Below are positions 7,308 to 64,000 of a stretch of DNA of 64,000 bases, in pieces. The stretch is from the sequence record NC_048195.1. One strand, written 5' to 3'. The position numbers were made by a program, and so were the translations under genes. The first letter of the stretch is position 1. Every line of letters starts with the position of its first letter. The notes under the pieces are model-generated. The model saw nothing but the letters and a program-made list of their open reading frames with translations. It ran no database searches and was not told where the DNA came from. Origin of the DNA: Escherichia phage vB_EcoM_WFC.

Positions 7308-7317
7308 AGAGGAAGTT

Positions 7318-7455
7318 ATGCAAAAGATTATTCAGTCACGTTATGTTAAAGTGCGAAATATTAATTGCAACTCTTTGCTTTCTTGGAAATGGGCTGTTTA
7401 TGACTCAATGCTGATTGGCGTTTTAGTTGCAGGAGTGCTATTTAATATCCACTGA
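7318..7455 (+). CDS. small hydrophobic protein (45 aa)
   Basis: ATG 7318 preceded by AGAGGAAG RBS; C-terminal hydrophobic segment MLIGVLVAGVLF; not in the ORF track (below its size cutoff). Confidence 0.35.
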   Translation: MQKIIQSRYVKVRNINCNSLLSWKWAVYDSMLIGVLVAGVLFNIH

Positions 7456-7496
7456 ATTCATCGGCAAAGGATTGCCGCGAGTTTTATACGTATAAT

Positions 7497-7760
7497 GACG
7501 TATCATACGTATCAAGTAAGTTATTGTTTTCAAAAGAATCTTACGGATGATACGGATGATACGCGTTGCCGCCGTACTATATAGGAATTCAAATAAATTA
7601 ATTTAAAATTATATATCTAATTTAATTTTATTTTTTTATAAACTCTTATATATGAAAAGTATCCGTATCATCCGTATCATCCGTAGCACACCAGTGATAG
7701 CGCGGCTTATACACCGATACGGATAAAAATACGCCTCATTTTATCCGTATCATCCGTATC
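7497..7760. repeat. iteron-like CCGTATCAT repeats in both orientations flanking an AT-rich core (region A)
   Basis: ACGTATCATACGTATCA (7497-7516), CTTACGGATGATACGGATGATACG (7540-7563), ATCCGTATCATCCGTATCATCCGTA (7661-7685), TATCCGTATCATCCGTATC (7742-7760); AT-rich core about 7575-7650. Homologous to region B at 60018-60347. Confidence 0.6.
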
Positions 7761-7818
7761 ACACTAATAAAGGCGCGGCTATATCGGTTGTTATACATAT
7801 TCAAACCATAATTATTGT

Positions 7819-7847
7819 TTGCCTAAGTTTTTTTCATTAGATATAAT
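7819..7847 (+). promoter_or_regulatory. sigma70-like promoter upstream of the scaffold/capsid genes
   Basis: TTGCCT (7819-7824), 17-nt spacer, TATAAT (7842-7847), then GAGGGTGG RBS and ATG 7871. Confidence 0.45.
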
Positions 7848-47189: not shown

Positions 47190-48272
47190 ATGGCTAGTTT
47201 AAGAGAAGAAGCAAAAATAATTGAAGAGTTTTTAACAGAACTCCAAAGAGGCATTCCAGAAGATGAGCGCGTCATGACGGTGTTTGCTCCTGAAGCAACG
47301 GTACAGACCGACGAGCGCGGCAAGAAGATTAACAGCAGCTTCTGGCCTAAGCCTTGGAAGTTGGGCAAGCCGCTCATGCAGCACCAAAACGGCTATGCTT
47401 GCATCAGTTCAATGCGTAAGTCTCCCAACCCAAAGACGGGTGAGATGCGATACTGGCGTACAGAGTCTGCCTTTGGTCACGGCATGGCGATGATGGTTGA
47501 TGACATCGGTCACGGTAAAGGGTCCAAAGGTGATTTAGATTTGGAATTCTTTTTCGAGCGACTGAAGCCGACTGTCATCGTCGAGACTTCACCGAACAAC
47601 CACCAGCTTTGGTACTTCTTTAAAGAACCGATTGACCATCTTATTCAGTTCAAAGCGTTCCTTGGGTCTTTCGTTAACATGGTACTCAAGAAGGGCGGCG
47701 ACAACACGATTAAAGACGTAACGCGCGTGGGTCGTGTTCCTGGGTGCATCAATAACAAGCGTGTGACTCACGACGGCCCCTATAAATATGTCGATGAGAA
47801 CGGCGACCCGTTCCGCTGCCGACTTGTCCATGCAGACTACTCCTTGCGCTACACCATCGAAGACATTTGTCAGGCATTTGGCTTTCACGTCGTCATGCCG
47901 CAAAAGCGTGAGATTCAAATTGACGTCGATGAATACAAGTATGATGCTGTTTGGTATAAAATAGCCCAGCAGATTCTAGCGCGCAACAAGATGGGTGAAG
48001 GGTCTGATGGCGACGTCATCGAGAATATGTCAGGCAAGTGTCGCATAATCTGTCCTTGGGGTGAAGAGCACACCAACGGCGACCCGTATGGCGCTTACTT
48101 TCGCGGCCCTATCCCTGGTGCAGAACATGAATTTGTGTTCGGTTGCGCCCACGACTGCCACCGGAAAGGGGAAGGCAAGAAAGGTTGGACTGCTTTTGTT
48201 GAAGCAATCGTCATGCCTTATATTGAGAATCAACTTGACATGATAAATCGTCGTGCAGGTGGCATAAAATAG
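47190..48272 (+). CDS. DNA primase-like protein (archaeo-eukaryotic primase / Prim-Pol-like) with C-terminal Cys/His cluster
   Basis: 360 aa; acidic MMVDDIGHG and ETSPNNHQLWYFF resemble AEP motifs; C-terminal CPWGEEH ... CAHDCH zinc-binding-like cluster. Confidence 0.55.
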   Translation: MASLREEAKIIEEFLTELQRGIPEDERVMTVFAPEATVQTDERGKKINSSFWPKPWKLGKPLMQHQNGYACISSMRKSPNPKTGEMRYWRTESAFGHGMAMMVDDIGHGKGSKGDLDLEFFFERLKPTVIVETSPNNHQLWYFFKEPIDHLIQFKAFLGSFVNMVLKKGGDNTIKDVTRVGRVPGCINNKRVTHDGPYKYVDENGDPFRCRLVHADYSLRYTIEDICQAFGFHVVMPQKREIQIDVDEYKYDAVWYKIAQQILARNKMGEGSDGDVIENMSGKCRIICPWGEEHTNGDPYGAYFRGPIPGAEHEFVFGCAHDCHRKGEGKKGWTAFVEAIVMPYIENQLDMINRRAGGIK

Positions 48273-49581: not shown

Positions 49582-51252
49582 ATGTCAATTAATAATGACA
49601 ATCTTCCAGAGGATACAGGTGATGAATTTGGTGCAATCTTTGACGAAATTCAAGATGCAGGCGTTTCGGAAGAAATGCAGGCAGCAGAGCAGCAAGGCAC
49701 CAGAGCTAAAATCAGCCTTCAACATAAAGCTGTTGAAAAAGATTCAGAGCGCATGGAATGCTACGGTGAAGAAGACTTGGTTGAAAGAGCACGCTTGCTC
49801 GCCTCACTTCAGGTAATCAAGTTCCCTCACTACAAGCCTACCAAAGATGACTTCGTTCTACAGGCAGACCGGACGAGTGACATGAACCGTTATGCGGTTT
49901 TCGACGCGTTGTTTGATAAGGGAAGTGGCGTTGTTCCATTCCCTCACAAAGATACTTTTCGTGGGCGCTTAGTCGACCATCGCGGCGAAACATTCACTGA
50001 CCGTACCTTGGAAGTCACAGAGATAGTTGCCGCTGTCGACGCAGCAGGGTTGTCCAACCCAAACTCACGTCAGGTCGCTCAATCCTATAAGGAATGGGCC
50101 ATGCGTTATCAGCGCGACGACCTGATGGACTTCTTCTACAAGAAGCTGCCTGAATGGGACGGTACTGCGCGCATCGAGAAATACCTTATCGAGCTATTCC
50201 GACCGTTCGATACAGAGTTAAACCGACAAATCGGTGTGTATTTTTGGCTATCGCTCTACAACCGCCTGACCAACCCTGGCTGTCAAGCGCCAATCTCCAT
50301 CGCGCTCATCGGCGGCCAGAACGCAGGGAAGAGTTATTTTAGCAAGCTGCTTTGCGAAGCTATTATGAACGACCGCCACGCAACACCGATTCCGTTGAAC
50401 TTAGCCGCGCAAAACTTCAACCCGTTCTTGCGAGCTATCACGGGTCGCTCGATTATCGCGAACGTCGGCGAGATGACAGGCTTTAAAAAGGCCGACATCG
50501 AAAACATGAAAGCATTCCTGACTAAGACGGAAGATGACCTGGACTTCAAATTTGAAGATACGCAGGTTAAACCACGCCAGTGGATTGCTATCATGGACGG
50601 CAACGAATACGCAGGCATGCAGCGTGATGACACGGGCAACCGTCGTGTGTATCCTATCTTTGTTGGCCAACTCGCTGACAAGGACGGGCAACCGAACTGG
50701 TCGAAAGACTTCCAAGCTGACCTTTCCACTTTGAAAGAAGACGTTTGGCAGCTTATGGCTGAGTGCGCTGCGTGGATGGAGAAGCACGGCGAAGCAGGCT
50801 ATAACGCGTTTGTTGGTGAAACATCTCGCATGCTTACTGAGTTCAGTAAAAACGAAATGGAACGCGCTCGCGGCGTTATCCGTGATGAGATGGTTGATAA
50901 CGACCTTGTTGAAGTCGTCATCACCGCGCCTTATGACCGACATCACAGCGGACGCTGGCACATCACCAGTGGTGCTATTGCTATGGGATTCAGAGCGAAG
51001 TGCGGCAAGTCGCCTTTCTCTCGTACCCTTGCGCCACACATGTCGAAGCTTGGTTTTGAGCCTGCGACCTATCGCAACCAGCGCGGTTACTTTACGCCGC
51101 TGATTAAGAATGAAGCAGGGGAATACATTTCTGATTTGATGACCATCTTAGCGTATCTTATCCGCGATGAGTCTGACCCTGAAGATATTGAATTCTTGAA
51201 GAAGGTTATTGAGCGTAAACGTTCTTTGGGAAGAGATAAGGATGAATTCTGA
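49582..51252 (+). CDS. VirE-family P-loop NTPase (primase-associated helicase-like)
   Basis: 556 aa; Walker A IGGQNAGKS; AGGAGG RBS; position next to the primase gene. Confidence 0.7.
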   Translation: MSINNDNLPEDTGDEFGAIFDEIQDAGVSEEMQAAEQQGTRAKISLQHKAVEKDSERMECYGEEDLVERARLLASLQVIKFPHYKPTKDDFVLQADRTSDMNRYAVFDALFDKGSGVVPFPHKDTFRGRLVDHRGETFTDRTLEVTEIVAAVDAAGLSNPNSRQVAQSYKEWAMRYQRDDLMDFFYKKLPEWDGTARIEKYLIELFRPFDTELNRQIGVYFWLSLYNRLTNPGCQAPISIALIGGQNAGKSYFSKLLCEAIMNDRHATPIPLNLAAQNFNPFLRAITGRSIIANVGEMTGFKKADIENMKAFLTKTEDDLDFKFEDTQVKPRQWIAIMDGNEYAGMQRDDTGNRRVYPIFVGQLADKDGQPNWSKDFQADLSTLKEDVWQLMAECAAWMEKHGEAGYNAFVGETSRMLTEFSKNEMERARGVIRDEMVDNDLVEVVITAPYDRHHSGRWHITSGAIAMGFRAKCGKSPFSRTLAPHMSKLGFEPATYRNQRGYFTPLIKNEAGEYISDLMTILAYLIRDESDPEDIEFLKKVIERKRSLGRDKDEF

Positions 51253-51899: not shown

Positions 51900-51938
51900 T
51901 TATCATCAAAATATTTGCTTTTCTGACGAGGTGATATT

Positions 51939-52163
51939 ATGATTAATTTAGACAGGATTGAGTTAGCACTTAGTACCTTAATCAAATATTACCAGTTTGC
52001 GTTTAAGGCTAGTTTGTTTGGCTTGTTCAATCCTCATCAAGCAGCAAAGGCGAGAAGCAATGCCAACCGCCTGCGCTGTACTGGTATAGTTATCCATGAC
52101 CGGATATTGACAGAGGGTAGATTCAGCCATGAATACACAGGGGAGAATAACAAATCAACGTAG
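51939..52163 (+). CDS. hypothetical protein (74 aa)
   Basis: GAGGTG RBS; early array. Confidence 0.4.
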   Translation: MINLDRIELALSTLIKYYQFAFKASLFGLFNPHQAAKARSNANRLRCTGIVIHDRILTEGRFSHEYTGENNKST

Positions 52164-52338
52164 GGCTTTACAAGTCCTCATCCACTACCTGTCACGCCTT
52201 TATCCAACGGCGCACGAGCAGAATCCAGCAACTGGTCATCTGTTTAAGCGCCGTAACCTTTCGCTAAAAACATTCGCTTTAATCCAATATGACCGCTACC
52301 TGGACGGGCGCTACTGCGGCCCGAAGGATTCTCTATGA
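52129..52338 (+). CDS. hypothetical protein (69 aa)
   Basis: Early array; overlaps upstream ORF by 35 nt, so the start is uncertain. Confidence 0.35.
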   Translation: MNTQGRITNQRRALQVLIHYLSRLYPTAHEQNPATGHLFKRRNLSLKTFALIQYDRYLDGRYCGPKDSL

Positions 52339-52613
52339 TTAATACATACAAAGTATTCTTTGTCAAGTGCACATCATCTATTGATGACCAATTTACTGCT
52401 GGCAAGAATTATCCCGTGATTTCTGAGTCAAGGCTAGATATAATCTTGAATGATCATGAAATCTATGAGCCGATGCCAGCGACTGCGTTTGATGTTATCG
52501 GTCACGTTCGGATTAAGACTAATGTTGATACGATGCATGATCCGTTGTTCAAGAAGCAAATCAAGAATGCCATGCAAGACTTTTGCGCGGCTATGTTTAA
52601 ATATTATAAGTGA
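52335..52613 (+). CDS. hypothetical protein (92 aa)
   Basis: ATGA start/stop coupling with the upstream ORF. Confidence 0.45.
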   Translation: MINTYKVFFVKCTSSIDDQFTAGKNYPVISESRLDIILNDHEIYEPMPATAFDVIGHVRIKTNVDTMHDPLFKKQIKNAMQDFCAAMFKYYK

Positions 52614-52620
52614 GTTGAAG

Positions 52621-52842
52621 ATGAGCAAGAAAACCCTTAAGGCTGGCGACCGTATCCGTTGGATGTCAGGACAGAATATGCGCGCAGGCACCATCCTTGA
52701 GCTGGATGAATACCTTACCGATTCGCGCGGTCGCAATCATTACCGTGTCAGAATCGATACAGTAAAAGAAGATGACAAGTCACTTGTTGGTGAAGTGGTC
52801 ATCGTTACTCCACGTCAAATCAAGGCGGCTTGTGAAGCATGA
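52621..52842 (+). CDS. hypothetical protein (73 aa)
   Basis: Internal ATG 52621 chosen because the ORF-track start would lie inside the previous gene. Confidence 0.4.
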   Translation: MSKKTLKAGDRIRWMSGQNMRAGTILELDEYLTDSRGRNHYRVRIDTVKEDDKSLVGEVVIVTPRQIKAACEA

Positions 52843-52994
52843 ATAAATTTCAGTTCAACGATAACAAGATCAGTAAAGCAGACGCAATCAAGCAGCTTCG
52901 TCGCGTACTTGAAGCCAGTGGCCATACGAAAGAGCGTGCACGCGTCTTGGCCAAAGAACATTATAAACGTTTTGTGTCACAAATCAGAGGTTAA
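52839..52994 (+). CDS. small hypothetical protein (51 aa)
   Basis: ATGA coupling with the upstream stop; below the ORF-track cutoff. Confidence 0.35.
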   Translation: MNKFQFNDNKISKADAIKQLRRVLEASGHTKERARVLAKEHYKRFVSQIRG

Positions 52995-52996
52995 TT

Positions 52997-53491
52997 ATGA
53001 TCATCCATCGCCCTTTAATGTTAAAGAAAGAAGAGTGTGAAGAAATCTTACACGCATTGAGACGTGCAGAAGCAGATGTTAACCTTCGAATAAAGGTAAG
53101 AGACTTCATTATGAAGCAGTTCGAAAATGATGATGTTGACTATGCCATTGATGAATTGCTGAATCGCAACGTCAAAGGCGCAACAAGACCCATTTGCCAT
53201 CAATCACGTTGCGCAAGAGTCCCTATTCAAAATTATGTTCATAAAAAGCCGCGCCTTAAACCTGTTCCGGCTGATAAAATAGAAGTCGGTGATGTTATCG
53301 TCTGCGTCTATTACGGCAGTCAGATTTTCAATGCCGTTGTGGTAAGGCGATACAGCATAAACGGTTGCCAATACATGGAAGTGACAAACGCAAAGAAAGA
53401 ACCTGGCAGCTTGAACGTGGCTTACGCATTAAGGGAATTCAGCAGTCCTTCTTGCATTCTTTATAAGGTACTCGACCATGGCTCATGTTAA
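52997..53491 (+). CDS. hypothetical protein (164 aa)
   Basis: Early array. Confidence 0.45.
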   Translation: MIIHRPLMLKKEECEEILHALRRAEADVNLRIKVRDFIMKQFENDDVDYAIDELLNRNVKGATRPICHQSRCARVPIQNYVHKKPRLKPVPADKIEVGDVIVCVYYGSQIFNAVVVRRYSINGCQYMEVTNAKKEPGSLNVAYALREFSSPSCILYKVLDHGSC

Positions 53492-53825
53492 AGACGAAGT
53501 GCTGTTTGGCGCAGAGATTAAGAAACGTGTCAGAGAAATGGCAGGAGAAGAAAGAATGAAGCCGTTGCGAAAAGGTTTTGATCACATCAATGGCGTATCC
53601 GGCACGAAGGAGATGGGCGTGTTGGTGAAAGACATCCGCGTTGGCGATGTCATGGTCATCGACCGACAAGCGCGAGTCGTTATCCAGGTGCAACCTAACG
53701 ATGATGAAGGATGTGTCCTATTGAAGCTGAAGAAGCTTTCATCCAGCCCAGCGAAAGCAGTCATCAAGAAGGTGTGGCCTGAAGGATTACGCAAACTCAT
53801 CCGTCGACCCGTGGAGAATGCATGA
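53478..53825 (+). CDS. hypothetical protein (115 aa)
   Basis: Early array. Confidence 0.45.
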   Translation: MAHVKDEVLFGAEIKKRVREMAGEERMKPLRKGFDHINGVSGTKEMGVLVKDIRVGDVMVIDRQARVVIQVQPNDDEGCVLLKLKKLSSSPAKAVIKKVWPEGLRKLIRRPVENA

Positions 53826-54061
53826 TGGAAGATTATATTAACGCGATGTATATGGCATTCTATGTCGTGCAACTTCCCAATGGCGCGGTATTTTATGGCG
53901 AGTATACCTTTGACGTTCAATACGACGTTTCAGAGCGTACAGTGTTGACAAGGGAGTTGATTGCGGACCTTAAGGACGACATCAAACGCGTCGCGCGGCA
54001 GCAGTTCAATTTGGATGACACAGTCATCGTTCGAATTACCGGAATAACAGAGGTGCAGTGA
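53822..54061 (+). CDS. hypothetical protein (79 aa)
   Basis: Start/stop overlap with neighbours. Confidence 0.45.
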   Translation: MMEDYINAMYMAFYVVQLPNGAVFYGEYTFDVQYDVSERTVLTRELIADLKDDIKRVARQQFNLDDTVIVRITGITEVQ

Positions 54062-54390
54062 TGACCCGTGATCAGATACTCGCCGCGCATGAGCGTGAGA
54101 AGGTGAAAGAGATTTGTAAAAGGCACAAATCATTTGCTGACTCTTATGTGTTCTTAAAGTCTTGCATCAAACAAAACGCAAGGATGGATAACACTGTATT
54201 GACATTCAACCTTTTGTCTAACGGAGCAAAGCTTGATGCGATATGCGGGTGCAGAATTGCCAGCATGACGTTTGAACGAGGTGCTCACAAAGACTCTTTC
54301 TTCTATCAATTCTCCCATCGGACGGGTGATACAAAGATAACAAGGACGCGGCACGAGATAGAGATTGACCTGCTCCACTATGTAAAATGA
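54058..54390 (+). CDS. hypothetical protein (110 aa)
   Basis: Start/stop overlap with neighbours. Confidence 0.45.
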   Translation: MMTRDQILAAHEREKVKEICKRHKSFADSYVFLKSCIKQNARMDNTVLTFNLLSNGAKLDAICGCRIASMTFERGAHKDSFFYQFSHRTGDTKITRTRHEIEIDLLHYVK

Positions 54391-54408
54391 ATATCAAAAA
54401 GGTGATTT

Positions 54409-54603
54409 ATGAGTGTTAAACTAGACATACAGAAAACCCTTGACAAAGCTGCTGCAATAAAGAACTTCATGGATTGTTACGCCAGTTGCACGCTTTATGG
54501 AAGCGTTCCAAACGGTGATGTGAGACCGGAAAGCATGCTTGAGTGGCTTGTTGAGCACCGTTACATAATCGACATAGTTGATGAATACATAAAGCAGAAA
54601 TGA
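54409..54603 (+). CDS. hypothetical protein (64 aa)
   Basis: AAGGTGA RBS before the ATG. Confidence 0.45.
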   Translation: MSVKLDIQKTLDKAAAIKNFMDCYASCTLYGSVPNGDVRPESMLEWLVEHRYIIDIVDEYIKQK

Positions 54604-54611
54604 ATATCAAA

Positions 54612-54656
54612 AAGGTGAGCTAAATGCTTGCCTTTTCTTTTATCAATACTTATACT
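54612..54656 (+). promoter_or_regulatory. hairpin-plus-promoter cassette (copy 1)
   Basis: Hairpin AAGGTGAGC/TAAAT/GCTTGCCTT (54612-54634) with T-run; TTGCCT (54628-54633), 17-nt spacer, TATACT (54651-54656). Confidence 0.45.
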
Positions 54657-54688
54657 CTTTTCATCAAGACGAACAAGTGAGGTGAATT

Positions 54689-55006
54689 ATGATTTACTTA
54701 GGAATGGACGAAGATGCGCACAAAGACCTTTCAAGGGTGCCAAACGTTAAGTTAGACACAGCTGTACACATCAAGCCTTGGCCAATCGCCCACCCTGACG
54801 TAGTTGTACCAGTCGCGCCTGGCACGCGTTACGTGGCCATTGATGACGACGGAGTAATTCACTGTTATTCGGAAAAACCAAAGTATATAAAGCAATATCA
54901 CGGTTGGTTTTTGGACGAGCGTGCAATGGCGCGTTACTGCGGCGAAGTCGGTCTGGAAGGTTGGAGCTTCAAGGCTAGTGAATCGTGTGTCGAGGTGCAA
55001 TTATGA
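54689..55006 (+). CDS. hypothetical protein (105 aa)
   Basis: GTGAGGTGA RBS; early array. Confidence 0.45.
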   Translation: MIYLGMDEDAHKDLSRVPNVKLDTAVHIKPWPIAHPDVVVPVAPGTRYVAIDDDGVIHCYSEKPKYIKQYHGWFLDERAMARYCGEVGLEGWSFKASESCVEVQL

Positions 55007-55221
55007 ATGCCGCGCTGGGTAAGTTGTCTTTCAATAAACGCAACGAGCTGCGCATGGTGTCGCGCTTTCAACAAACGTATTCATCACTAATAAAGATTAC
55101 AAATAAGGCCGACTCTAGAGCTTGCCCTAAAGAAGAATGGGAAGCATTGAACGAGCGTCGTAAACAATTACAACATGCTGCATTCAAGCTGCAGCAATAT
55201 GCTATGGAGTATGCAAAATGA
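55003..55221 (+). CDS. hypothetical protein (72 aa)
   Basis: ATG 55003 preceded by GAGGTG. Confidence 0.4.
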   Translation: MNAALGKLSFNKRNELRMVSRFQQTYSSLIKITNKADSRACPKEEWEALNERRKQLQHAAFKLQQYAMEYAK

Positions 55222-55502
55222 AGATGCAAAGATGTCCCCATTGCTTGTCCACGATGCGGCTTACTGCTGAAGAATATTTACATCACGTTAACGTTTGTGA
55301 GGCTAATCCTGAAAACTCGACGCGTTACTATTATCATTATCACGCAGAAGCGGAAGATGGATCAGGCGCAACAGGCATCGTCACCACTAAAGAAATGGTG
55401 ATAACTAAAAAGGCATATGAAAGCTTGCTGGAGACGATTAAAGAAGTTTCTGGCAAAGAAATCACCTGTATTAAATCTTTATCTTTCTTGCACGAGGTAT
55501 AA
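55218..55502 (+). CDS. small Cys/His zinc-finger-like protein (paralog a)
   Basis: 94 aa; N-terminus MKMQRCPHCLSTMRLTAEEYLHHVNVCEANPENS. Confidence 0.45.
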   Translation: MKMQRCPHCLSTMRLTAEEYLHHVNVCEANPENSTRYYYHYHAEAEDGSGATGIVTTKEMVITKKAYESLLETIKEVSGKEITCIKSLSFLHEV

Positions 55503-55503
55503 A

Positions 55504-55887
55504 ATGAGAATGAAGCGTTGCCCTTACTGCCACGATGTGGTGCACCTTCCACACGAAGAGTTTGTGCACCACATGACTAACTGTGATAAGAATCCTAATA
55601 GCGAAAGCCAACTTGAAGAAAGAATGTTCTTGGTGTCATTCAAAGCTTCTGCTTATGAAGTGCAACGTTCTTACGGCGCACCAAGTACGATTTACTGTCC
55701 AACAACATTGAGAAGCGACATCGACTCAATTCAGCTTGCGGCCTGGATTAACGTTAAGGAAGGAATCACGCCGCACTTTATTGCGCGCATCCAATCTCAG
55801 ATTCTACAAATCAAGCGCGAATACAACCGTGACATCACTGAAGTGAAGGTGTTGTCTATCACACCGATGAATAAGGAGTTGCCGTGA
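55504..55887 (+). CDS. small Cys/His zinc-finger-like protein (paralog b)
   Basis: 127 aa from ATG 55504; N-terminus MRMKRCPYCHDVVHLPHEEFVHHMTNCDKNPNSES matches the adjacent paralog. Confidence 0.45.
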   Translation: MRMKRCPYCHDVVHLPHEEFVHHMTNCDKNPNSESQLEERMFLVSFKASAYEVQRSYGAPSTIYCPTTLRSDIDSIQLAAWINVKEGITPHFIARIQSQILQIKREYNRDITEVKVLSITPMNKELP

Positions 55888-56144
55888 ACAAGGGTCCGAT
55901 GACTAAGTTAGCCGTTGCCGCGCGGAAGCTTCGACAAGCCGTTAATGGGTCGCGGCCCGTGGTGTTAACACTCGACGATGCAAAGGCACTGGTAGAGCTA
56001 CTCGACGAGCACAACCGACGCAAGAATCTGGAGAACACATTACGCTGGCGCGTTACTCCGAAAGGGCGGGAGAGCGAGAAGAAAGCTTACTTGCGACGCA
56101 AACTAAGGTCAGTCGGCCTCCACGAAGAGGCGAAGAATATTTAA
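55884..56144 (+). CDS. hypothetical protein (86 aa)
   Basis: GTG start preceded by AAGGAG. Confidence 0.4.
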   Translation: MNKGPMTKLAVAARKLRQAVNGSRPVVLTLDDAKALVELLDEHNRRKNLENTLRWRVTPKGRESEKKAYLRRKLRSVGLHEEAKNI

Positions 56145-56150
56145 TTCAAA

Positions 56151-56194
56151 AAGGTGAGCTAAATGCTTGCCTTTTTATTTGCCTGTATTATACT
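56151..56194 (+). promoter_or_regulatory. hairpin-plus-promoter cassette (copy 2)
   Basis: Same hairpin as copy 1 (56151-56173); TTGCCT (56167-56172), 16-nt spacer, TATACT (56189-56194). Confidence 0.45.
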
Positions 56195-56215
56195 TAGTTC
56201 ATCAAGCAAAGGAGA

Positions 56216-56524
56216 ATGATTATGAGTTACGACGAAAGGTTTGGCAGAAGCGGATTATTTCATGACGCTGTACACAAAGACAGCAAAGATGTTGTCTGCG
56301 CATTCAAGGTTGATTCTTACGGTACACTGAAACCTTTTAAGGTCGGCGAAACATACAAGCTGTTTCACGGCTGGTTGACGCGTCGCAACAACTTGCCTGA
56401 CATGGAAGTCTGGTGGATAGAATACAAGGGTCAGGCTCATCGTTGCAAGGTTGTAGAGGTGCGCGGCGTGGAATACTATCAATCTGTTATCAGCGGCTTT
56501 GTTTTTAAAGAGGGTGAGCTATGA
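56216..56524 (+). CDS. hypothetical protein (102 aa)
   Basis: AAGGAG RBS; early array. Confidence 0.45.
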   Translation: MIMSYDERFGRSGLFHDAVHKDSKDVVCAFKVDSYGTLKPFKVGETYKLFHGWLTRRNNLPDMEVWWIEYKGQAHRCKVVEVRGVEYYQSVISGFVFKEGEL

Positions 56525-56826
56525 GTACAGAAGCGATGAAGAAAAAGATTTTGAACGCTTTGCAAGAAGCCGTGAACTGTGGTGCAATTAAAACCTTTAC
56601 TGAAAGGCAAGTCGGTGAGGTGACGGTGCACGGATTCAATAATAACAAAAACGGAATTGCTGCCATAATGCTGTTGAAGAACAGCGATGACACATTCATC
56701 ATTTACGTCGGCGGATATGAGCTTATCGTTGATGATTTGTTCATCACTTGCGCTGACGGCCTTAACCCAATGTTAACGTTCGAGCGGCGCGGCATCCGTG
56801 TTGCAACGTTTGGAGGGAAGTTATGA
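56521..56826 (+). CDS. hypothetical protein (101 aa)
   Basis: AGGGTGAG RBS; N-terminal AVNCGAI segment shared with the 57004 protein. Confidence 0.45.
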   Translation: MSTEAMKKKILNALQEAVNCGAIKTFTERQVGEVTVHGFNNNKNGIAAIMLLKNSDDTFIIYVGGYELIVDDLFITCADGLNPMLTFERRGIRVATFGGKL

Positions 56827-56987
56827 CATCAAATCTTAAAGCCCGTTTATTATTCATCAAGCCGCATGTGCCGTATAAGATTAGTAAGCGCACCTGGCTT
56901 AACATTTACAACCGCAGCGGCGACCGTTGTTTGTACAAGGCAAAGCGGCGCAAGAAGGTATATTCTTACACAACATCAATCAAATAA
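56823..56987 (+). CDS. small basic protein (54 aa)
   Basis: ATGA coupling with the upstream stop; Lys/Arg-rich. Confidence 0.35.
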   Translation: MTSNLKARLLFIKPHVPYKISKRTWLNIYNRSGDRCLYKAKRRKKVYSYTTSIK

Positions 56988-57003
56988 ATAGGATAAGACA
57001 ACA

Positions 57004-57507
57004 ATGAAAATCGAACAACTCGAAGCAGTACTGGAAATGGCTGTAAAGGCTGGCGCAATCAGAAGCTATAGCCGCGAGAAGTCGGAAAACGATATGGTGT
57101 TTTGTCGCAACTTCTATATCGTCGGCAACCTTAACGACCACTACACCATCGAGTGGTATATTAACATGATGACGCTTAAGTCGCGCACCATGGAGCTTTG
57201 GTGCGATGACATTTGCTTATCCAACACCCATCCATCCTACGACGTTGCATTGGCATTCTATTACGGAAGCCGTCAACCTGTCGCCCACATCGGTGAGAAG
57301 CATGAGCATCTTAAGGCGCGACCAGAGGAATCAATGGAAGGCTGGATTGAATGGGCTGGAGGAAAGAATCCGGTGCCTGGTAAGAAGGTCATGTTGATGT
57401 GGAGGAATGAAGAAAAGTCGTCGTATTCGTCCAATTCAGAGGGATGGCTATGGCATCACAACGGAAGCGTTTATGACATCATAAAGTATCGCGTCGTGGA
57501 GGAATGA
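57004..57507 (+). CDS. hypothetical protein (167 aa) with C-terminal WxGGxNPVPGK module
   Basis: C-terminal EGWIEWAGGKNPVPGKKV ... YRVVEE shared with the 58791 protein. Confidence 0.45.
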   Translation: MKIEQLEAVLEMAVKAGAIRSYSREKSENDMVFCRNFYIVGNLNDHYTIEWYINMMTLKSRTMELWCDDICLSNTHPSYDVALAFYYGSRQPVAHIGEKHEHLKARPEESMEGWIEWAGGKNPVPGKKVMLMWRNEEKSSYSSNSEGWLWHHNGSVYDIIKYRVVEE

Positions 57508-57848
57508 TGGAAGAACAAGAAGGCCGTGAGCTGACATTCGATGAACAGATGGCCGAACTTCAGCGCACATCGCCGCTGCGCGGTAAGGTTGTTGACATTG
57601 AGGCGAGCGAATCCAATCTCACCAAGTGGCGGCTCAAGTGCACCAGCACAAGCAAGGATATGTTAAGCTTCAAAGTCGGTCAGACTTATTTGCTTTATGA
57701 GGCAAAAGGACTTATTATTGATGGAAGGCAAATTGTCTTCACGGTTGTCAACGGCATGCGTTGGTTCGTGAAGCGTGATGTCGAGGGACGTGACATGTTT
57801 GTCGCAGGCTTTCCAGAAGCAAGATTCCAATTGGAGAAGGTTAAATGA
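57504..57848 (+). CDS. hypothetical protein (114 aa)
   Basis: Start overlaps the upstream stop. Confidence 0.45.
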   Translation: MMEEQEGRELTFDEQMAELQRTSPLRGKVVDIEASESNLTKWRLKCTSTSKDMLSFKVGQTYLLYEAKGLIIDGRQIVFTVVNGMRWFVKRDVEGRDMFVAGFPEARFQLEKVK

Positions 57849-58171
57849 AATTGAAATGGTACGTGGACCCTGAGCCGACAGGCTCATACAGGTCATTCCA
57901 ACGTCGCGGCTGGCCGATTTGTTACAGCGGCAATCCCGATAAAGAAGACTGCGAGATGATCGCCGCGATAGTAAGTCTTAACCATGACGGCTATGAAGGC
58001 CACTACGCGAGAGCAACCAACCTTCGGCTCAAGGTGCGCATCCATTTCAAGGTCGCAGGCAAGGACCGCACCGGACTCTCCAAGGAAGAGTTCAGCAGCA
58101 TTGCCGAAGCAAAGGCATGGCTCAAGGCATTCTACAAGGCCAATCCTAAATTTTATCCAGTCAAGGAATAA
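57845..58171 (+). CDS. hypothetical protein (108 aa)
   Basis: Start overlaps the upstream stop. Confidence 0.45.
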   Translation: MKLKWYVDPEPTGSYRSFQRRGWPICYSGNPDKEDCEMIAAIVSLNHDGYEGHYARATNLRLKVRIHFKVAGKDRTGLSKEEFSSIAEAKAWLKAFYKANPKFYPVKE

Positions 58172-58174
58172 GTG

Positions 58175-58579
58175 ATGAATCAACATAAAGAACGTTTAGA
58201 AGAACTGGTGCGCGGCGAGCTTTACGGCGGCGATGACTCACTGTTCAAGTTAAGCGATGCGGTTGTCAACGAGTACGTGCACGGACTGGTCGACCCGCAA
58301 GGCCGTTTCCCTTATCCGCGAGATTACTGCAACGACATCACAGCAGCTTGGCCCGTGATGCTTGCCAATGATGTCAGCGTCGTGCGAAACTGCGGCAACA
58401 AAGAACCAAACCGTGACTACTCGGCTTACGTCGCGTTGGACGCCATGGACATTGCATCATTTAAATGCAGCGGCAGCCACGACAACCCGTTACGCGCCGC
58501 TATGCATGTAATCATTAAGTTGCACGTGAGCAAGGGCGAAGGTGCAGTGGCAACCGTTTATGAGAAGGTGAAATTATGA
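58175..58579 (+). CDS. hypothetical protein (134 aa)
   Basis: First ATG taken (ORF track starts at GTG 58172). Confidence 0.45.
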   Translation: MNQHKERLEELVRGELYGGDDSLFKLSDAVVNEYVHGLVDPQGRFPYPRDYCNDITAAWPVMLANDVSVVRNCGNKEPNRDYSAYVALDAMDIASFKCSGSHDNPLRAAMHVIIKLHVSKGEGAVATVYEKVKL

Positions 58580-58794
58580 CCGATAAACAATACGCAGTCG
58601 GGCAACGTGACATCGAGCAACTCGACGAGGGCGGCTATTATACTCGCCACATCTATGCAATGACGCATGAAGGACTCTACAGCAAGTCGGACATTGCCGC
58701 TGAACTGGCCCATCGTGACTTGCAAATTGACCTTCTCAAGATAGAAGTGCAAAACTTACGCAACACCCTGTTAAATACCTGGAGCTTAAAATGA
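58576..58794 (+). CDS. hypothetical protein (72 aa)
   Basis: GAAGGTG RBS. Confidence 0.45.
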   Translation: MTDKQYAVGQRDIEQLDEGGYYTRHIYAMTHEGLYSKSDIAAELAHRDLQIDLLKIEVQNLRNTLLNTWSLK

Positions 58795-59192
58795 TCAATC
58801 GATTTAACTGCATCGTCAACAAGGGGATGGCGGTCAATGAGGATGGTCCTTGGATTCACTATGAGGACTATGAATCACTGCTCAAGCTTAATGAGTCGCT
58901 AACAAAAGAGATTGAGCAATACCGCGAGCGCATCAAAGCCGCTGAAGATGTTATCAAGCTTTTTAGCGAGGCTGTTGAGAAATACAAGGAGCGCAACGTA
59001 CCGATTAAGGAGGAAGCGTGGACCGTGTGGTTTGGTGGTGAGAATCCGGTGCCTGGGAAGATGGTTGAGTTTGAATTACTCAACGGTTATAAATCAAAAG
59101 GTGCTGTTCCTTCGGATAGTTTGACATGGGATAAAGTCACAAGCCCGACTGGTGCAAAGATTGTTGCTTATCGGGTCGTTAAGGAGGGGTGA
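58791..59192 (+). CDS. hypothetical protein (133 aa) with C-terminal WxGGxNPVPGK module
   Basis: GGAG RBS; C-terminal WTVWFGGENPVPGKMV ... YRVVKEG. Confidence 0.45.
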   Translation: MINRFNCIVNKGMAVNEDGPWIHYEDYESLLKLNESLTKEIEQYRERIKAAEDVIKLFSEAVEKYKERNVPIKEEAWTVWFGGENPVPGKMVEFELLNGYKSKGAVPSDSLTWDKVTSPTGAKIVAYRVVKEG

Positions 59193-59725
59193 TGGGTAAC
59201 GATGCAGGATGGGGCAAGCCGCGATACTCAAAACTTGCCCACTACTTTGACAACGGCGAGCAAATCAGCTTGTGCGGTAAATTCAACAAAGGCAATACAG
59301 AGTTGACCGATGCTCAAGAAATGGAATCAAGTTTTACAATTGGTGATTGCTCTAAGTGCAGAAAGGCATTATATGAGTTATTAACTCTAAGGGGATTGAA
59401 AGCGGCAAAATCAAGGGATGAATGGGTCATCAACGTCTGTGAAGGGAATCCAGAATTAATGGATGAATTGCTGAAAACAGATGCCGTTAATGCCATTTTT
59501 AAAAGGCATTATAAAACTTGTATGCGTTACAAGATGAATGATAATATTATTTTTATGGTATTATCTTATTCAAGGAGCACAATGGACGTCAAAAAGCTTC
59601 GACAATATCGTCACAAGGTAATGTGTGAATTGCGCCGTTTAGGAGTGACTGTTGATAATAATGTCATTAAAACGGAGTTAAAGAAGCGTGATAAAAGGAA
59701 TGGTGACTGGAAGGTCAGCAGATAA
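59192..59725 (+). CDS. hypothetical protein (177 aa)
   Basis: AAGGAGG RBS; last gene of the early array. Confidence 0.45.
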   Translation: MGNDAGWGKPRYSKLAHYFDNGEQISLCGKFNKGNTELTDAQEMESSFTIGDCSKCRKALYELLTLRGLKAAKSRDEWVINVCEGNPELMDELLKTDAVNAIFKRHYKTCMRYKMNDNIIFMVLSYSRSTMDVKKLRQYRHKVMCELRRLGVTVDNNVIKTELKKRDKRNGDWKVSR

Positions 59726-60017
59726 AGAACGTTGATTTGTGTGTTTTGAAGAATGGAATGTGTGCAATGGGTCGCTTTATGCGGCCTTTTGTTGTTTGGG
59801 TCGTGTTTTGCGATGGAATAATTATGAGGTTGTGTTTTATTTATTAATTGTGCGGAAATATTTAGAAATATATATAAACAGGATTGTTAATATTTTAATA
59901 GTGTATGGCTATTGGTCCGTGGTGTTCGTTAGATTCTATCTATGGATTGGATTTTCTTGGGTCGTGAAACGTGGTTTTGAACACATTTGATACGCCTAAA
60001 ATACGGTTAAAAATTAA

Positions 60018-60347
60018 GCGTATCATGGCTGCAGGCCGCGCCGTTCCTGGATTCCTATTTTCAAAAGTGGTACACCCTTACGTCATGATACGTCATGGTT
60101 TTCTATCCGTAAGAGTGTACAGCCCTTGCCGCGCCTGGCTTGTACATTAATCTTACGGATGATACGGATAAAACTGAGCATCGTTATATATAGAATTCGA
60201 AAAATTAATTAACTCCATTTTAAAAACATTTATATTAATTTTTTTCATATCCTCATACTTATGTTAATTTATATATTTAACGTATTATCCGTAAGATATA
60301 AGTAAAAACAAAGACTTGCGGCAATACGGATGATACGTCATGATACG
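60018..60347. repeat. iteron-like TACGGATGATACG repeats flanking an AT-rich core (region B)
   Basis: CGTCATGATACGTCATG (about 60080-60097), CTTACGGATGATACGGATA (60152-60170), ATCCGTAAG copies near 60104 and 60287, AATACGGATGATACGTCATGATACG (60323-60347); AT-rich core 60180-60280. Confidence 0.6.
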
Positions 60348-60512
60348 CTTCGACCAGCCAGCAGCGGCTAAGTCATTGATTTGCATAACAAGCGGCAAAA
60401 GGGATGGATTTCTTTTATACGTATCAAACAGTACACCACGCACCACGGTCCGCAATCCACGCAGCATTATGATTTGTGTACTTTTATAGCCATAATGAAC
60501 ATCAATCTGCAC

Positions 60513-60541
60513 TTGAATATAATGTCCATCCATTGTATAAT
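60513..60541 (+). promoter_or_regulatory. sigma70-like promoter upstream of the TerS-like gene
   Basis: TTGAAT (60513-60518), 17-nt spacer, TATAAT (60536-60541). Confidence 0.45.
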
Positions 60542-60561
60542 TCACACTATTAATTTGCACT

Positions 60562-61050
60562 ATGGGATTTTGCACTATGAGTCAAGATTATGTAGCGATG
60601 CCTGAAGACTTTGAAGACCCGCGATTCGCAGAGCACAATCAGGCTTTATTCGATGAGTTCATTGACCTTGTTATTCAGGGCCATGACATGCGCGCAGCTT
60701 TTGCACTAGTATTTGGAATGGAAGTTGCAACGGATAACTACACTGGCCAGCGAATCCTTTGCACGCAACGCAATCCATACTACAAGATGCGCTTCAAAAA
60801 GCGTATGGAAGAGATGCCACTCAAGGATTTGTGGAGCGTAAAAGGTGCAATTCACAATTTGGTCAAGCTTGTGCGTGATCCAGAAGTCGCGGCGTCAGCC
60901 AAGCTTAATGCTATTCGTGAACTGAATATCATCTACGGCATCACGATGATTGATGAAAACGGCAATAGTAAAATGGGCCGTTCCATGGACGATTTCTACA
61001 AGGATTTCGGAGAGGCGGCCAAAGAAGGCGAGCAATTTTCCCGCCACTAG
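60562..61050 (+). CDS. putative terminase small subunit (HTH-type)
   Basis: 162 aa; GHDMRAAFALVFGME ... QRILCTQRNPYYKMRFKKRMEE and later KLNAIRELNIIYGI resemble small-terminase patterns from memory; alternative ATG at 60577. Confidence 0.45.
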   Translation: MGFCTMSQDYVAMPEDFEDPRFAEHNQALFDEFIDLVIQGHDMRAAFALVFGMEVATDNYTGQRILCTQRNPYYKMRFKKRMEEMPLKDLWSVKGAIHNLVKLVRDPEVAASAKLNAIRELNIIYGITMIDENGNSKMGRSMDDFYKDFGEAAKEGEQFSRH

Positions 61051-61052
61051 CC

Positions 61053-61448
61053 AATTTGCACTATAAAACGGCCCTAGAACACATTTTCTCCACTTCTAGG
61101 GCCATCGGTAATACGACGGGGAAGGTTGCAACCATAAACGCGTTAGAAAGTGTATTATTATAAGTCATCTTTTAGTCACTTTACGTAACAATTTACGACC
61201 TTCAACCGTCCAATCGAACGACTCCACCAGCAGATTCGCACTATAACCTAAGACGATGCGCCCTTTCTCGTTATCGACCCGCCAACAAGTCTCGAATAGC
61301 ATTCGATTTGCACTATTAACTATTGCCGCAACTCGCGTAGGATAAGCGCAATTTGCACTATGGTCGTAAAGGGATAAGGTGCGACCACTTCCGATGGACA
61401 ACGTAGCGATGAGAATAAGCGTATTCATAAGCCACCAATTTGCACTAT
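61053..61448 (+). repeat. array of same-orientation (A)ATTTGCACTAT motifs
   Basis: Copies at 61053-61064, 61233-61244 (TTCGCACTAT variant), 61305-61316, 61350-61361, 61437-61448; further copies at 60552-60563, 60569-60578, 61734-61745, 61748-61759, 62021-62032. Confidence 0.6.
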
Positions 61449-61478
61449 GAAAAGCGACCCCGAAGGGCCGCCATTCGA

Positions 61479-62105
61479 TTAGATAATCTGGAAGGTATAG
61501 GACTTGTTGCCGAACTCGAAGTTCAAGCGTCCAGCTTCTTTAAGCTTCATGCGGAAGCGAATGTGCTTGCTATCCGGTAAGCCCAGCGCGGCGAACGCTA
61601 CGCGGACCGATTTGAACTCGCCTACACCCTCGACCATAACGCCGTTACGGGTAAGACGCTTTTGCGCCACTTCCTTATTATCCCAACTTTTTGCAATGCC
61701 TTCGCTATTCGAACGGCGATGGGAAGGAGTTCCATTTTGCACTACGCAATTTGCACTATCGTTTAAACCGCTCTTAACGAAGGCTTCATACTCTTCGTCG
61801 GTCATCGCGTCGAGTTCTTCCTGCGTCGGCTCGGCCTTTTTAACGACCGCACGCGCCTTATGCGTTTTTACATCGCTGGACACTTCCTCGCGAGACTTCG
61901 CGTCGGGGATGGGCGATTCGTTGGACGGCTCATCGAGCGCGTTTAAGGACTCGATTAACGCTATTACGCGAGTCTCGGCGGTCCGGCGGTCCGCAAATTT
62001 TTTAATCGGCTTCGAACCGGAATTTGCATTATAAAATGCAACGAGGTCGGCGGTCTTAGTTGCGATAACGTCGCCGCTAGTCGAGAAACGATTTAAGCTA
62101 ACCAT
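61479..62105 (-). CDS. hypothetical protein (208 aa)
   Basis: Minus-strand ORF in the CpG-rich block; second gene of an operon driven from about 62570. Confidence 0.45.
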   Translation of the reverse strand: MVSLNRFSTSGDVIATKTADLVAFYNANSGSKPIKKFADRRTAETRVIALIESLNALDEPSNESPIPDAKSREEVSSDVKTHKARAVVKKAEPTQEELDAMTDEEYEAFVKSGLNDSANCVVQNGTPSHRRSNSEGIAKSWDNKEVAQKRLTRNGVMVEGVGEFKSVRVAFAALGLPDSKHIRFRMKLKEAGRLNFEFGNKSYTFQII

Positions 62106-62185
62106 AATGAACTCCTATTTGTTAGGGCGCTAGGCGCGAAAGAATTTTATTAAAGCGCCGCGCACGACGCTCTAAAAATCCTCTC

Positions 62186-62500
62186 TTACTCTTCGTCATC
62201 TTCGATTAATTCGAGGGCGAAGGCGTAAGCTTTGCTATCGTAATTAACTAAAACGGCGAGTTCGAACTCGTTAATAAACGCCGTTTTACCGCATAAATTT
62301 AATTCCGCATCGACTTCGAAGAATCCGTTTTCGTCGCGCTCTAAGCGAGAAGCAGCGAGTTGCTCGATTACCGTCGCGTCGTTAATTTCTTCGCCTAAGC
62401 GAACGCCGGAGAATTTCGCGAGAATTTCGCCGTAAGTAAGCGTAACGCCCTGGACTTCGGCGGTTGCGTTTTCGAGGGTAAAGCGGGTAACGATAGCCAT
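62186..62500 (-). CDS. hypothetical acidic protein (104 aa)
   Basis: AGGAG RBS upstream on the minus strand; CpG-rich codon usage. Confidence 0.45.
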   Translation of the reverse strand: MAIVTRFTLENATAEVQGVTLTYGEILAKFSGVRLGEEINDATVIEQLAASRLERDENGFFEVDAELNLCGKTAFINEFELAVLVNYDSKAYAFALELIEDDEE

Positions 62501-62568
62501 AATAAACTCCTAGTTGGGAGAGGCGTTAACGACCTATTCGTTAACTCATCCCGTCCCGATATGAGTAC

Positions 62569-62596
62569 ATTATAATATAGTGTAGAAAAAAGTAAA
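62569..62596 (-). promoter_or_regulatory. sigma70-like promoter (family copy 1, minus strand)
   Basis: On the minus strand: AAAAAGTGC TTTACT, 16-nt spacer containing TACACT, TATAAT. Confidence 0.5.
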
Positions 62597-62640
62597 GCAC
62601 TTTTTCGATAAAAATGCGATAAATTATTTTATCTTTTTTC

Positions 62641-62668
62641 TTTACTTCTTCGTACACTCGCGTATACT
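62641..62668 (+). promoter_or_regulatory. sigma70-like promoter (family copy 2)
   Basis: TTTACT (62641-62646), 16-nt spacer TCTTCGTACACTCGCG, TATACT (62663-62668). Confidence 0.5.
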
Positions 62669-62724
62669 TGTTTATATCGAGACGGGCGATGGCCCTTTCT
62701 TCTACTAGCATCGGGAGCTTTATT

Positions 62725-63027
62725 ATGACTACTTTAATCTCTTCCATCCTTACTTACGACGAAGACCGCTTAACCGTTCGCTCTCTTATCGCCGCCGTTA
62801 ACGCGGAACTAGAATCTAGCGCCATTAAGGTCCGCGCGGTCGCCTTCATCGGCCTTTCCTTCGACGATATGAAGTATGCCGAACGTAGCGCCATCCGCTT
62901 CGCGAAGACCGACGACGAAGCCGTTACCCTTATCGAGACGGTTACGCCGCGCGGCGAAGCGTTAATTATCGTCGAGTATATCGACGTAGAAGGCGATAAA
63001 TCTTATAAACATTTTATCGCAGAATAA
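62725..63027 (+). CDS. hypothetical protein (100 aa)
   Basis: ATG 62725 preceded by GGGAG; the ORF-track TTG start at 62668 lies inside the promoter; CpG-rich. Confidence 0.45.
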   Translation: MTTLISSILTYDEDRLTVRSLIAAVNAELESSAIKVRAVAFIGLSFDDMKYAERSAIRFAKTDDEAVTLIETVTPRGEALIIVEYIDVEGDKSYKHFIAE

Positions 63028-63039
63028 CGAAAAAAGTGC

Positions 63040-63068
63040 TTTACTTCTTCGTACACTAAGACTATAAT
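63040..63068 (+). promoter_or_regulatory. sigma70-like promoter (family copy 3)
   Basis: AAAAAGTGC TTTACT (63040-63045), 17-nt spacer TCTTCGTACACTAAGAC, TATAAT (63063-63068). Confidence 0.5.
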
Positions 63069-63135
63069 GTTTTATATCGAGAGGGGATGAGGTAGCGAAT
63101 AGGTCGCTACCCTCCCGACTAACTAGGAGAATATT

Positions 63136-63426
63136 ATGATTACTTTAGCCGCTATCCGTTCCGCTCGCGTCGAAACTTCCGAAAACTCTAACGTATTTGG
63201 CGAAAAACTTAAAAACGTTTATCTTTTTAACGTAGATGCGACTATCGAGGAGCTTCATAGTCCTATCGATTTTAGCGAATTTACGGAACTCGAAGAGGAA
63301 GATATTTCTACCTTCCGCGTTACTATCGAAGGCAAGGTTTATTTTGCTACGGAGTTCGGCGGCGAATATCTCGCGGTATCCGAAGGCGAAGGCCGTTACT
63401 CTTTCTTTAAAATCGTTTCCTTATAA
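63136..63426 (+). CDS. hypothetical acidic protein (96 aa)
   Basis: AGGAG RBS; CpG-rich; followed by a terminator. Confidence 0.45.
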   Translation: MITLAAIRSARVETSENSNVFGEKLKNVYLFNVDATIEELHSPIDFSEFTELEEEDISTFRVTIEGKVYFATEFGGEYLAVSEGEGRYSFFKIVSL

Positions 63427-63446
63427 TACCCATCCGTTACTAATAG

Positions 63447-63470
63447 GCCGCGCTTAGTCGCGGCTTTTCT
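63447..63470 (+). terminator. intrinsic terminator
   Basis: GCCGCG CTTAGT CGCGGC hairpin followed by TTTTCTT. Confidence 0.6.
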
Positions 63471-63592
63471 TCGTCCCTATCTCGATGCGCTTCTCCGCGA
63501 AAACTCCTTTATCCTTCCCTTCGTCGTCGCATAATCTTCGTCGAGATGCGCCTTAGTTCGCATAACAGGTATTACGTTAAATGGAGAACATC

Positions 63593-63668
63593 GCGTAAGT
63601 CGTTGTTTTATATAGACACCTATATCGGACCGTTAGCGAGGGTCGCGTAAGTCGTTGTTTTATAAAGG
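63593..63668. repeat. direct repeat ATCGCGTAAGTCGTTGTTTTATA (2 copies)
   Basis: Two copies about 53 nt apart in a ~550-nt stretch with no convincing ORF; further short direct repeats (AATCATTAGCYTTCGAAT) near 63789-63854. Confidence 0.4.
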
Positions 63669-64000
63669 CGCAAAACTTTCCCTTCGTTCCGAACTAAAAC
63701 GAGGAATATGCCGACCCTTCGCCCGAAAATAGTACGCATGCGATATTACCGACATCTAGAATAATCCCTCCCGATATTATTACGCGCTCAATCATTAGCT
63801 TTCGAATCATTATGCTGCATACTATTATGCGCCAAATCATTAGCCTTCGAATTGTAACGCTGGAAACTGTAACGTCGATTGATTATTGCGTTCGTGTGGT
63901 TTTTAGGACATGGGTCTTTTGGTGCGTTTTGCTACTTGATGGAATTTGCAGTACACTAATCAAAATACGACACATTTGGTCCACTAACTTTTCAAAGAAA

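Follow-up and report, generated by a model that had tools for sequence, protein, structure and literature searches.

Paired iteron elements in a Wifcevirus genome: candidate replication origins, one of which probably also holds the packaging cut upstream of terS

The window analysed here is a stretch of 64,000 nucleotides from Escherichia phage vB_EcoM_WFC. The DNA around both elements described below is that of a Wifcevirus, with 92–99% identity to known genomes, and the matches include Mansfield, WFH, ECML-117, FEC19, vB_Eco4M-7 and Bas98-101. Wifceviruses are myophages of about 68 kb that infect E. coli and Shigella and are distant kin of Pbunavirus. Genome ends of the window phage were transferred from relatives 93–98% identical to it, conservation in region B was counted over 11 Wifcevirus relatives, and all functional assignments are based on sequence and homology.

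The gene for the small terminase subunit (terS, 157 aa) lies at 60577..61050 on the plus strand. A first-pass annotation had called it TerS-like, and this was confirmed by a profile search that matched the protein to PDB 7UXE, the TerS of Pbunavirus E217 (E=1.5e-45); Pfam gave no match for the protein, and the PHROGs family that it matched is without an assigned function. A mechanical ORF call starts the gene at ATG 60562 (162 aa), and annotated relatives mostly start it at ATG 60577 (157–158 aa), which overlaps the second of two TTTGCACTAT motifs in the terS leader, between promoter and start codon (60554..60578, plus strand). Two overlapping sigma70-like promoters, TGAACA-16-TATAAT and TTGAAT-17-TATAAT, precede the leader (60496..60541, plus strand) and are invariant in the 11 relatives; the second of them (60513-60541) matches the consensus at 10 of 12 positions. 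A scan of viral contigs with the TerS alignment yielded no contigs other than three near-identical ones from Wifcevirus.

Upstream of these promoters lies the iteron-bearing region B. The plus-strand operon to its left ends in a terminator-like hairpin (59769..59787, plus strand), which is followed by the GT-rich left flank. The element itself begins with an outermost inverted iteron pair, TGATACGCCTAA / TTAAGCGTATCA (59988..60025), and continues with left distal iterons TACGTCATGATACGTCATG, a variant with a 10-bp period, and an inverted TATCCGTAAGA unit (60075..60114). A left proximal array, TCTTACGGATGATACGGAT, with a 9-bp period (60151..60169, plus strand) then borders an AT-rich core, the putative unwinding region (60170..60280, GC 16–22%). 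On the other side of the core are right proximal iterons CGTATTATCCGTAAG in the orientation opposite to that of the left array (60281..60296, minus strand), right distal iterons TACGGATGATACGTCATGATACG with TTGCGGC just before them (60325..60347, plus strand) and an outer right iteron TTTTATACGTATCAAA that is followed by a CA-rich flank (60413..60428, minus strand). The AT-rich core noticed in the first-pass annotation was thus borne out, with a GC content of 16–22% at 60150-60299 vs about 45% in the genome. The inverted repeat of B has 27-nt arms that lie 114 nt apart and are 81% complementary.

The flanks of B are mirror images in strand composition, GT-rich on the left (59650-59980) and CA-rich on the right (60430-60470), and the GC skew is +0.3 to +0.67 at 59650-59950. 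Similar GT-rich left and CA-rich right flanks were seen in PB1 (L019, 600-800 and 1200-1400) and Serratia phage Hera. The GT-rich flanks bear what we take to be a faint likeness to Chi. Over the whole window, GC skew tracks gene orientation and does not separate an origin from a pac site.

Region A, the paralogue of B, occupies 7489..7761 and comprises variant iterons (7489-7515), a left array (7538-7563), a core (7564-7660), an inverted array (7661-7687) and distal units (7716-7724 and 7743-7761). Two plus-strand units at 7542-7563 face three inverted units at 7661-7687. Its iterons are more perfect than those of B, and it carries a perfect 22-bp inverted repeat with arms 97 nt apart. The head maturation protease gene begins at 7878, and a sigma70-like promoter, TTGCCT-17-TATAAT (7819..7847, plus strand), lies in the gap between it and A. 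Each of the two elements is therefore placed between a terminator-like hairpin and a promoter, with the promoters 59–87 bp downstream of the last iteron, and a promoter of this type does follow each copy, as had been proposed. In both, inverted arrays enclose an AT-rich core of 97–111 bp that is clamped by GCCGC...GCGGC. A and B could be aligned locally over about 215 bp with a score of 104–138 vs 28 ± 4 for shuffled sequences, which upholds the earlier view that they are two homologous copies of one complex element.

The repeats belong to a TGATACG-core family, with the forms TACGGATGATACG at a 9-bp period and TACGTCATGATACG at a 10-bp period. The TGATACG core has 23 copies in the window, counted on both strands, 15 of which fall in A and B, in about 0.8 kb altogether (spans 7499-7761 and 59988-60426); the remaining eight correspond to chance expectation. 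At up to two mismatches, TACGGATGATACG gave 10 matches in 64 kb, all within 7130-7758 or 60154-60337, vs 1.07 ± 1.05 (maximum 4) in shuffle controls. The four exact copies of ATCCGTAAG are all in A or B; at one mismatch, ATCCGTAAG alone was not significantly enriched in the window. The repeat family reported in the first-pass annotation is thus far above shuffle controls and concentrated in the two regions.

Among the 11 relatives, the iteron arrays of B are conserved islands, with 5–10% variable columns vs 57–79% around them; in the left proximal array 1 of 20 columns varies (5%) vs 79% in the left flank. Next to no variation was seen in these 11 genomes in the left and right arrays, in GCCGCGxCTGG or in the cut motif described below, whereas to the left of the cut the genomes divide into three diverged haplotypes. 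Region A is conserved at the level of the neighbouring coding DNA. Phage Bas101 lacks exactly one 9-bp iteron unit of the left array of A (aligned window 7541-7549), which is natural copy-number variation of the repeats. We considered whether the inverted arrays might form a cruciform or hairpin. This is less likely than protein-binding iterons, because the arms in Pantoea phage PA1 keep the repeat unit without base-for-base complementarity and those of B are incompletely complementary.

The position of B coincides with a genome end in relatives, which the first-pass annotation had missed. The records of Mansfield, WFH and Ro157lw all begin at the base matching window position 60217, and in Mansfield the first base corresponds to 60217 and the last unique base to 60216. 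The Mansfield termini were called by PhageTerm (D'Souza 2019, PMC6753283), and a "terminal repeat of about 3.7 kb" was described for WFH (Korf 2019, PMC6563267). The direct terminal repeats measure 3673 bp in Mansfield, 3701 bp in WFH and 3533 bp in Ro157lw, and all three stop at the base matching window 63919; the WFH and Ro157lw records contain both repeat copies, and both end at GGGCATGGGTCTTT, the last base of which corresponds to 63919. Since the repeat lengths differ but the end sequences are identical, both ends are set by sequence and not by length. In window coordinates, the inferred direct terminal repeat spans 60217..63919 (3703 bp, plus strand), with the right boundary at GGACATGGGTCTTT/TGGTGCG (here and below, a slash marks the boundary).

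The left genome end, i.e. the start of packaging, very probably lies in the AT-rich core of B, judging from these relatives. The cut between 60216 and 60217 is separated from the left array by about 47 bp and from the right array by 64 bp, terS begins 360 bp to the right of it, and the terminal repeat runs rightward. The cut motif AATTAACTCC/ATTTT (AATTAACTCCATTTT; 60207..60221, plus strand), in which 60217 is the first terminal-repeat base, is unique in the window at up to two mismatches and absent from A. It is kept in a more distant relative (L032), the iterons of which have drifted to TGATACGT. By contrast, the iteron and AT-core architecture around the cut has one full paralogue in the window, region A. 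No terminus falls at A in the three terminal-repeat records, PhageTerm gave a single terminus pair and Pbunavirus JG024 has a single read-start peak; from the absence of reported ends there in relatives, A is apparently not a genome end. Features common to A and B alone therefore cannot specify the cut, unlike the B-specific ones, which by this comparison can.

An array with a 15-bp period, made of AATCATTAGC / TTGTAACG units (63790..63895, plus strand), lies within the terminal repeat, close to its right boundary, and is a candidate end-defining or injection-stop element. Its TTGTAAC units presumably amount to a faint likeness to Tus Ter cores. PA1 has a homologous array, AATGATTAGC, with homologous flanks, about 3.85 kb beyond its pac core, and a similar terminal repeat is therefore probable in that phage.

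The same element was found in other genera. Pbunavirus JG024 has a circularly permuted genome; among 161 long reads, 36 began at 59,376 ± 5, and a matching pac fragment was described (PMC10913387). In the JG024 sequence (GU815091), this position is in an AT-rich core between CCAATTTCCTAATTTCC (59318-59337) and TAGTAATTTGGTAATTTGG (59445-59465), within an orthologue of B located between the helicase gene and terS. Pbunavirus PB1 has two paralogues, one ahead of the protease gene (12620-13010) and one ahead of terS (58766-59100); both carry the iteron GGTAATTTGG, and they align with a score of 161 vs 27 ± 3 for shuffles. Pantoea phage PA1, whose TerS is 41% identical to that of the window, carries such a pair too, placed as in Wifcevirus, in which the iteron is TAACCGTTA at a 9-bp period and the arms lie 105 nt apart; its copy of A is followed about 65 bp downstream of the last iteron by a promoter, TTGCTT-17-TATAAT, read by eye. 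The copies are thus fixed in position in Wifcevirus, PB1 and PA1 and are not mobile inserts, a question that the first-pass annotation had raised.

Within each genus A and B carry one common iteron motif, and this motif differs between genera; the non-iteron core motifs ACTATATAGGA and GCCGC/GCGGC recur across genera. That the two positions are the same but the motifs different indicates that the pairing is ancient and dependent on a specific protein, and the co-variation points to one lineage-specific DNA-binding protein acting at both sites, which excludes chance matches and mobile inserts. A B-type element is directly upstream of terS in Wifcevirus, PB1, PA1, Hera, L032 and two integrated elements from Caballeronia and Cupriavidus. 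It follows the helicase gene directly in PB1, Hera and both integrated elements; in the window, small ORFs lie between the end of the helicase gene (51252) and the start of B (about 59988). Region A adjoins the helicase gene in no lineage examined.

This helicase (49582..51252, plus strand) is an SF3 VapE-like protein (Pfam PF05272, E=1.6e-28), resembles SaPI1 Rep1 and is a candidate initiator. It is encoded downstream of a RepB-type primase (47190..48272, plus strand; PF16793, E=4.5e-36). In a sequence comparison with solved structures, its sole match was 7PDS (E=4e-11), and 7PDS was also the best fold match of its AlphaFold model (pLDDT 83.7), with E=4e-16 over 480 columns and the next match at 3e-7. 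7PDS is the DNA-bound SaPI1 Rep1 (PMC9371898). Residues 436-504 of the model are predicted to follow the order helix-strand-helix-helix-strand-strand, the pattern of a C-terminal winged helix. This C-terminal domain is the most divergent of the protein, with a mean identity of 23% vs 60% for the ATPase domain, and in L032 the identities are 55.6% vs 86.7%. The 51252-59725 interval to the right of the gene contains about 8.5 kb of small plus-strand ORFs of no known function; it appears to be a Wifcevirus- and L032-specific expansion of accessory genes, L032 having a macro-domain ORF there.

In SaPIs, a primase gene and rep are followed by the origin immediately downstream of rep (Ubeda 2007/2012 via Qiao 2022, PMC9371898). 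That origin has 6–12 short iterons around a central AT-rich region, at least two on each side and in opposed orientation; the C-terminal winged helix of Rep reads the iterons, and two hexamers probably load, flanking the AT region (PMC9371898). Regions A and B likewise have opposed short iterons, at least two on each side of an AT-rich centre, and the phage encodes an SF3 self-loading helicase with a C-terminal winged-helix pattern and a primase gene upstream of it. The setting differs in that this is a virulent 68-kb myophage and not a satellite, with two copies per genome, units of a 9–10 bp period vs SaPI iterons of 5–6 bp, an element in the window about 9 kb from the helicase gene, and one copy that holds the packaging cut.

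From this architecture we infer an origin function for A and B, and likewise the identity of the protein that reads the iterons. The most economical model assigns the architecture common to both regions to origins and the B-specific core, together with adjacency to terS, to the packaging cut. In it, the helicase would read the TGATACG iterons through its winged helix and load as one hexamer to either side of the AT core, which would melt. Region A would be a second origin without a cut, the terminase would use the motif found in B alone, and the right end of the terminal repeat (63919) would be set by a different conserved element. To us it is an evenly balanced proposition that the Rep1-like helicase reads A and B as origins of the Rep type and that B carries the packaging cut in addition. 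For the architecture common to the two copies, the suggestion of two origins, which the first-pass annotation had offered in second place, appears to be the best-supported reading. What speaks against the helicase as reader is linkage: in the window B has stayed next to terS, with about 9 kb between it and the helicase gene, and a B-type element is upstream of terS in all lineages examined, so that linkage favours TerS at least as much as the helicase.

This linkage bears directly on a rival explanation, namely that B is a pac site only, its inverted arrays being TerS recognition sites that flank the TerL cut as in P1 and SPP1. We regard this as possible but rather unlikely. Region A could then be an uncut second TerS-binding site, for synapsis of the two sites through stacked TerS rings as suggested for T4, or a TerS sink or regulator. 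The cut between the arrays in two genera, an element immediately 5' of terS in all lineages examined, and its having stayed with terS and not with the helicase in the window all agree with such a site. The pac of P1 is likewise bipartite, with recognition repeats that flank a central cleavage site next to terS and packaging that runs one way from it. In SPP1, too, repeats on both sides of a central cut lie next to terS, packaging is one-directional and TerS contacts flank the cut (PMC9611059). The phage core differs from the P1 and SPP1 sites in being about 110 bp long and very AT-rich, with a full uncut paralogue elsewhere in the genome, and in Wifcevirus termination occurs at a fixed sequence (3.7 kb direct terminal repeat) and not by headful measurement. 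A second complete pac-like site, kept in at least three genera, would lack an accepted role, and its cleavage would be dangerous. A parallel is offered by the T4 "twin ring pac synapsis" model (Black; PMC9611059), with two pac-like sites per genome and TerS possibly forming double rings, and the C-terminus of E217 TerS was proposed to insert into another ring to give higher-order oligomers (PMC9611059). The T4 sites, however, are inside genes 16 and 19 and do not have the iteron and AT-core architecture, and outside T4 the model has not found general acceptance. In vitro, no appreciable binding of DNA by E217 TerS was seen (PMC9611059). The N-terminus of TerS is strongly conserved between lineages with differing iterons, and in every point the architecture, together with the encoded Rep1-like helicase, corresponds to a known type of origin (PMC9371898).

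Control of transcription, the primary proposal of the first-pass annotation, holds that the repeats are operator or enhancer sites at which a phage factor co-regulates the terS unit and the protease/scaffold/capsid unit. The placement of both elements between a terminator and a promoter, with sigma70-like promoters 59–87 bp downstream of the iterons, suits this idea, and AT-rich boxes and conserved intergenic motifs in PB1-like phages had led to the suggestion of a phage transcription factor (Garbe 2010, PMC3008698). Both promoters, however, are near-consensus and host-type and need no activator, no candidate regulator was identified, and neither the genome end in the core nor the symmetric arrays around an AT core of about 100 bp, 150–300 bp upstream of the promoters, would be explained. 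Because the terS unit is inside the terminal repeat, behind a near-consensus host-type promoter, its designation as late is also unproven. Coordinated control of two late transcription units found no direct support, and we consider it improbable. A last alternative, to which we give almost no weight, is that the repeats are low-complexity chance matches or that a small mobile element left them as its relic. With inverted repeats on both sides of an AT-rich centre, the elements do superficially resemble the ends of MITEs or insertion sequences. Chance was rejected because the enrichment is far above shuffles, three genera keep the positions and the motifs of A and B co-vary. A search of 5,426 E. 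coli genomes and 72,556 plasmids found no copies of the element, so the relic was rejected as well; an Rfam search of 59700-60650 gave a chance match only (E=1) and no known RNA family.

Paired origins of the kind proposed have counterparts in other phages. In SPP1, oriL and oriR are bound by G38P, and in P4, ori and crr are bound by the alpha primase-helicase, which is also an SF3 protein. Two homologous iteron loci many kilobases apart are served there by one phage initiator, as is proposed for A and B, and one of the loci is among late genes; the differences are that no packaging role is known for those loci and that the initiators are of different families. JG024 provides the closest case at the locus itself, which is orthologous and has its cut in the same AT core, between the inverted iterons of its own lineage. 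Its genome, however, is circularly permuted and packaged by the headful mechanism (PMC10913387), whereas Wifcevirus ends are fixed.

A further and more speculative step, which we consider doubtful, is that origin firing and packaging are coupled at B, with the terminal repeat produced by local re-replication from origin B. The AT core melted by the helicase would then be the substrate cut by the terminase, and re-replication would start at origin B and stop at the 15-bp-period array near 63919. Such coupling would account for a left end within an origin core and for a right end set by sequence and not by length. We know of no precedent for a pac cut within the unwinding region of an origin. 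In a related variant, TerS rings would synapse A and B as a check of concatemer maturity.

Earlier publications or annotations had given the boundaries of the terminal repeats, the pac position of JG024 and, in PB1-like phages, the unexplained "AT-rich boxes" (PMC3008698), and the iteron architecture, the A paralogue and the link to the helicase are described in neither PMC10913387 nor PMC3008698. New here are the iteron architecture, the conserved pairing of A and B with co-varying motifs, the match to SaPI-type origins via the Rep1-like helicase, the location of the packaging cut within the AT core and an ancient module of helicase, element and terS that is shared with integrated elements. 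How phages with long direct terminal repeats recognize and duplicate their ends is largely unsolved, and origins and pac sites were so far undefined in the Pbunavirus/Wifcevirus lineage, which includes widely used therapeutic Pseudomonas phages. Base-level candidates are now available for the pac cut, two origins, the initiator and the right-end element. They can guide synthetic rebooting and engineering as to which ends to preserve and which non-coding regions to leave intact. A packaging cut within the unwinding region of an origin would, if confirmed, be an unusual coupling of replication and packaging.

The two integrated elements are integrase-bearing chromosomal elements, L030 5001-7859 (Caballeronia) and L031 5001-7854 (Cupriavidus-related), both with a Rep1/VapE-like helicase. 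A gap of about 650 bp contains 9-bp-period inverted iterons, e.g. three copies of CACTTAAGG facing CCTTAAGTG, and the TerS homologue has 27–38% identity. Both cores contain AAATGCAAA. From this gene content, they could be satellites or prophages that have the helicase-origin-terS module in common with the phage family.

A second repeat family, (A)ATTTGCACTAT, is separate from the iterons and occupies window positions 60554-62032. Eight of the nine GCACTAT copies in the window are at 60557-61753, all on the plus strand, even within minus-strand ORFs; the two TTTGCACTAT motifs of the terS leader are the first of these eight, and about 11 looser copies of this type reach 62032. The (A)ATTTGCACTAT motif is absent from PB1 and kept in Mansfield, WFH, Ro157lw and L032, and could be a cosB-like array of TerS sites or a set of host-factor sites. 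In PA1, whose pac iterons differ, all eight plus-strand copies of its form, TTGCACTA, are located within 2.7 kb after the pac core.
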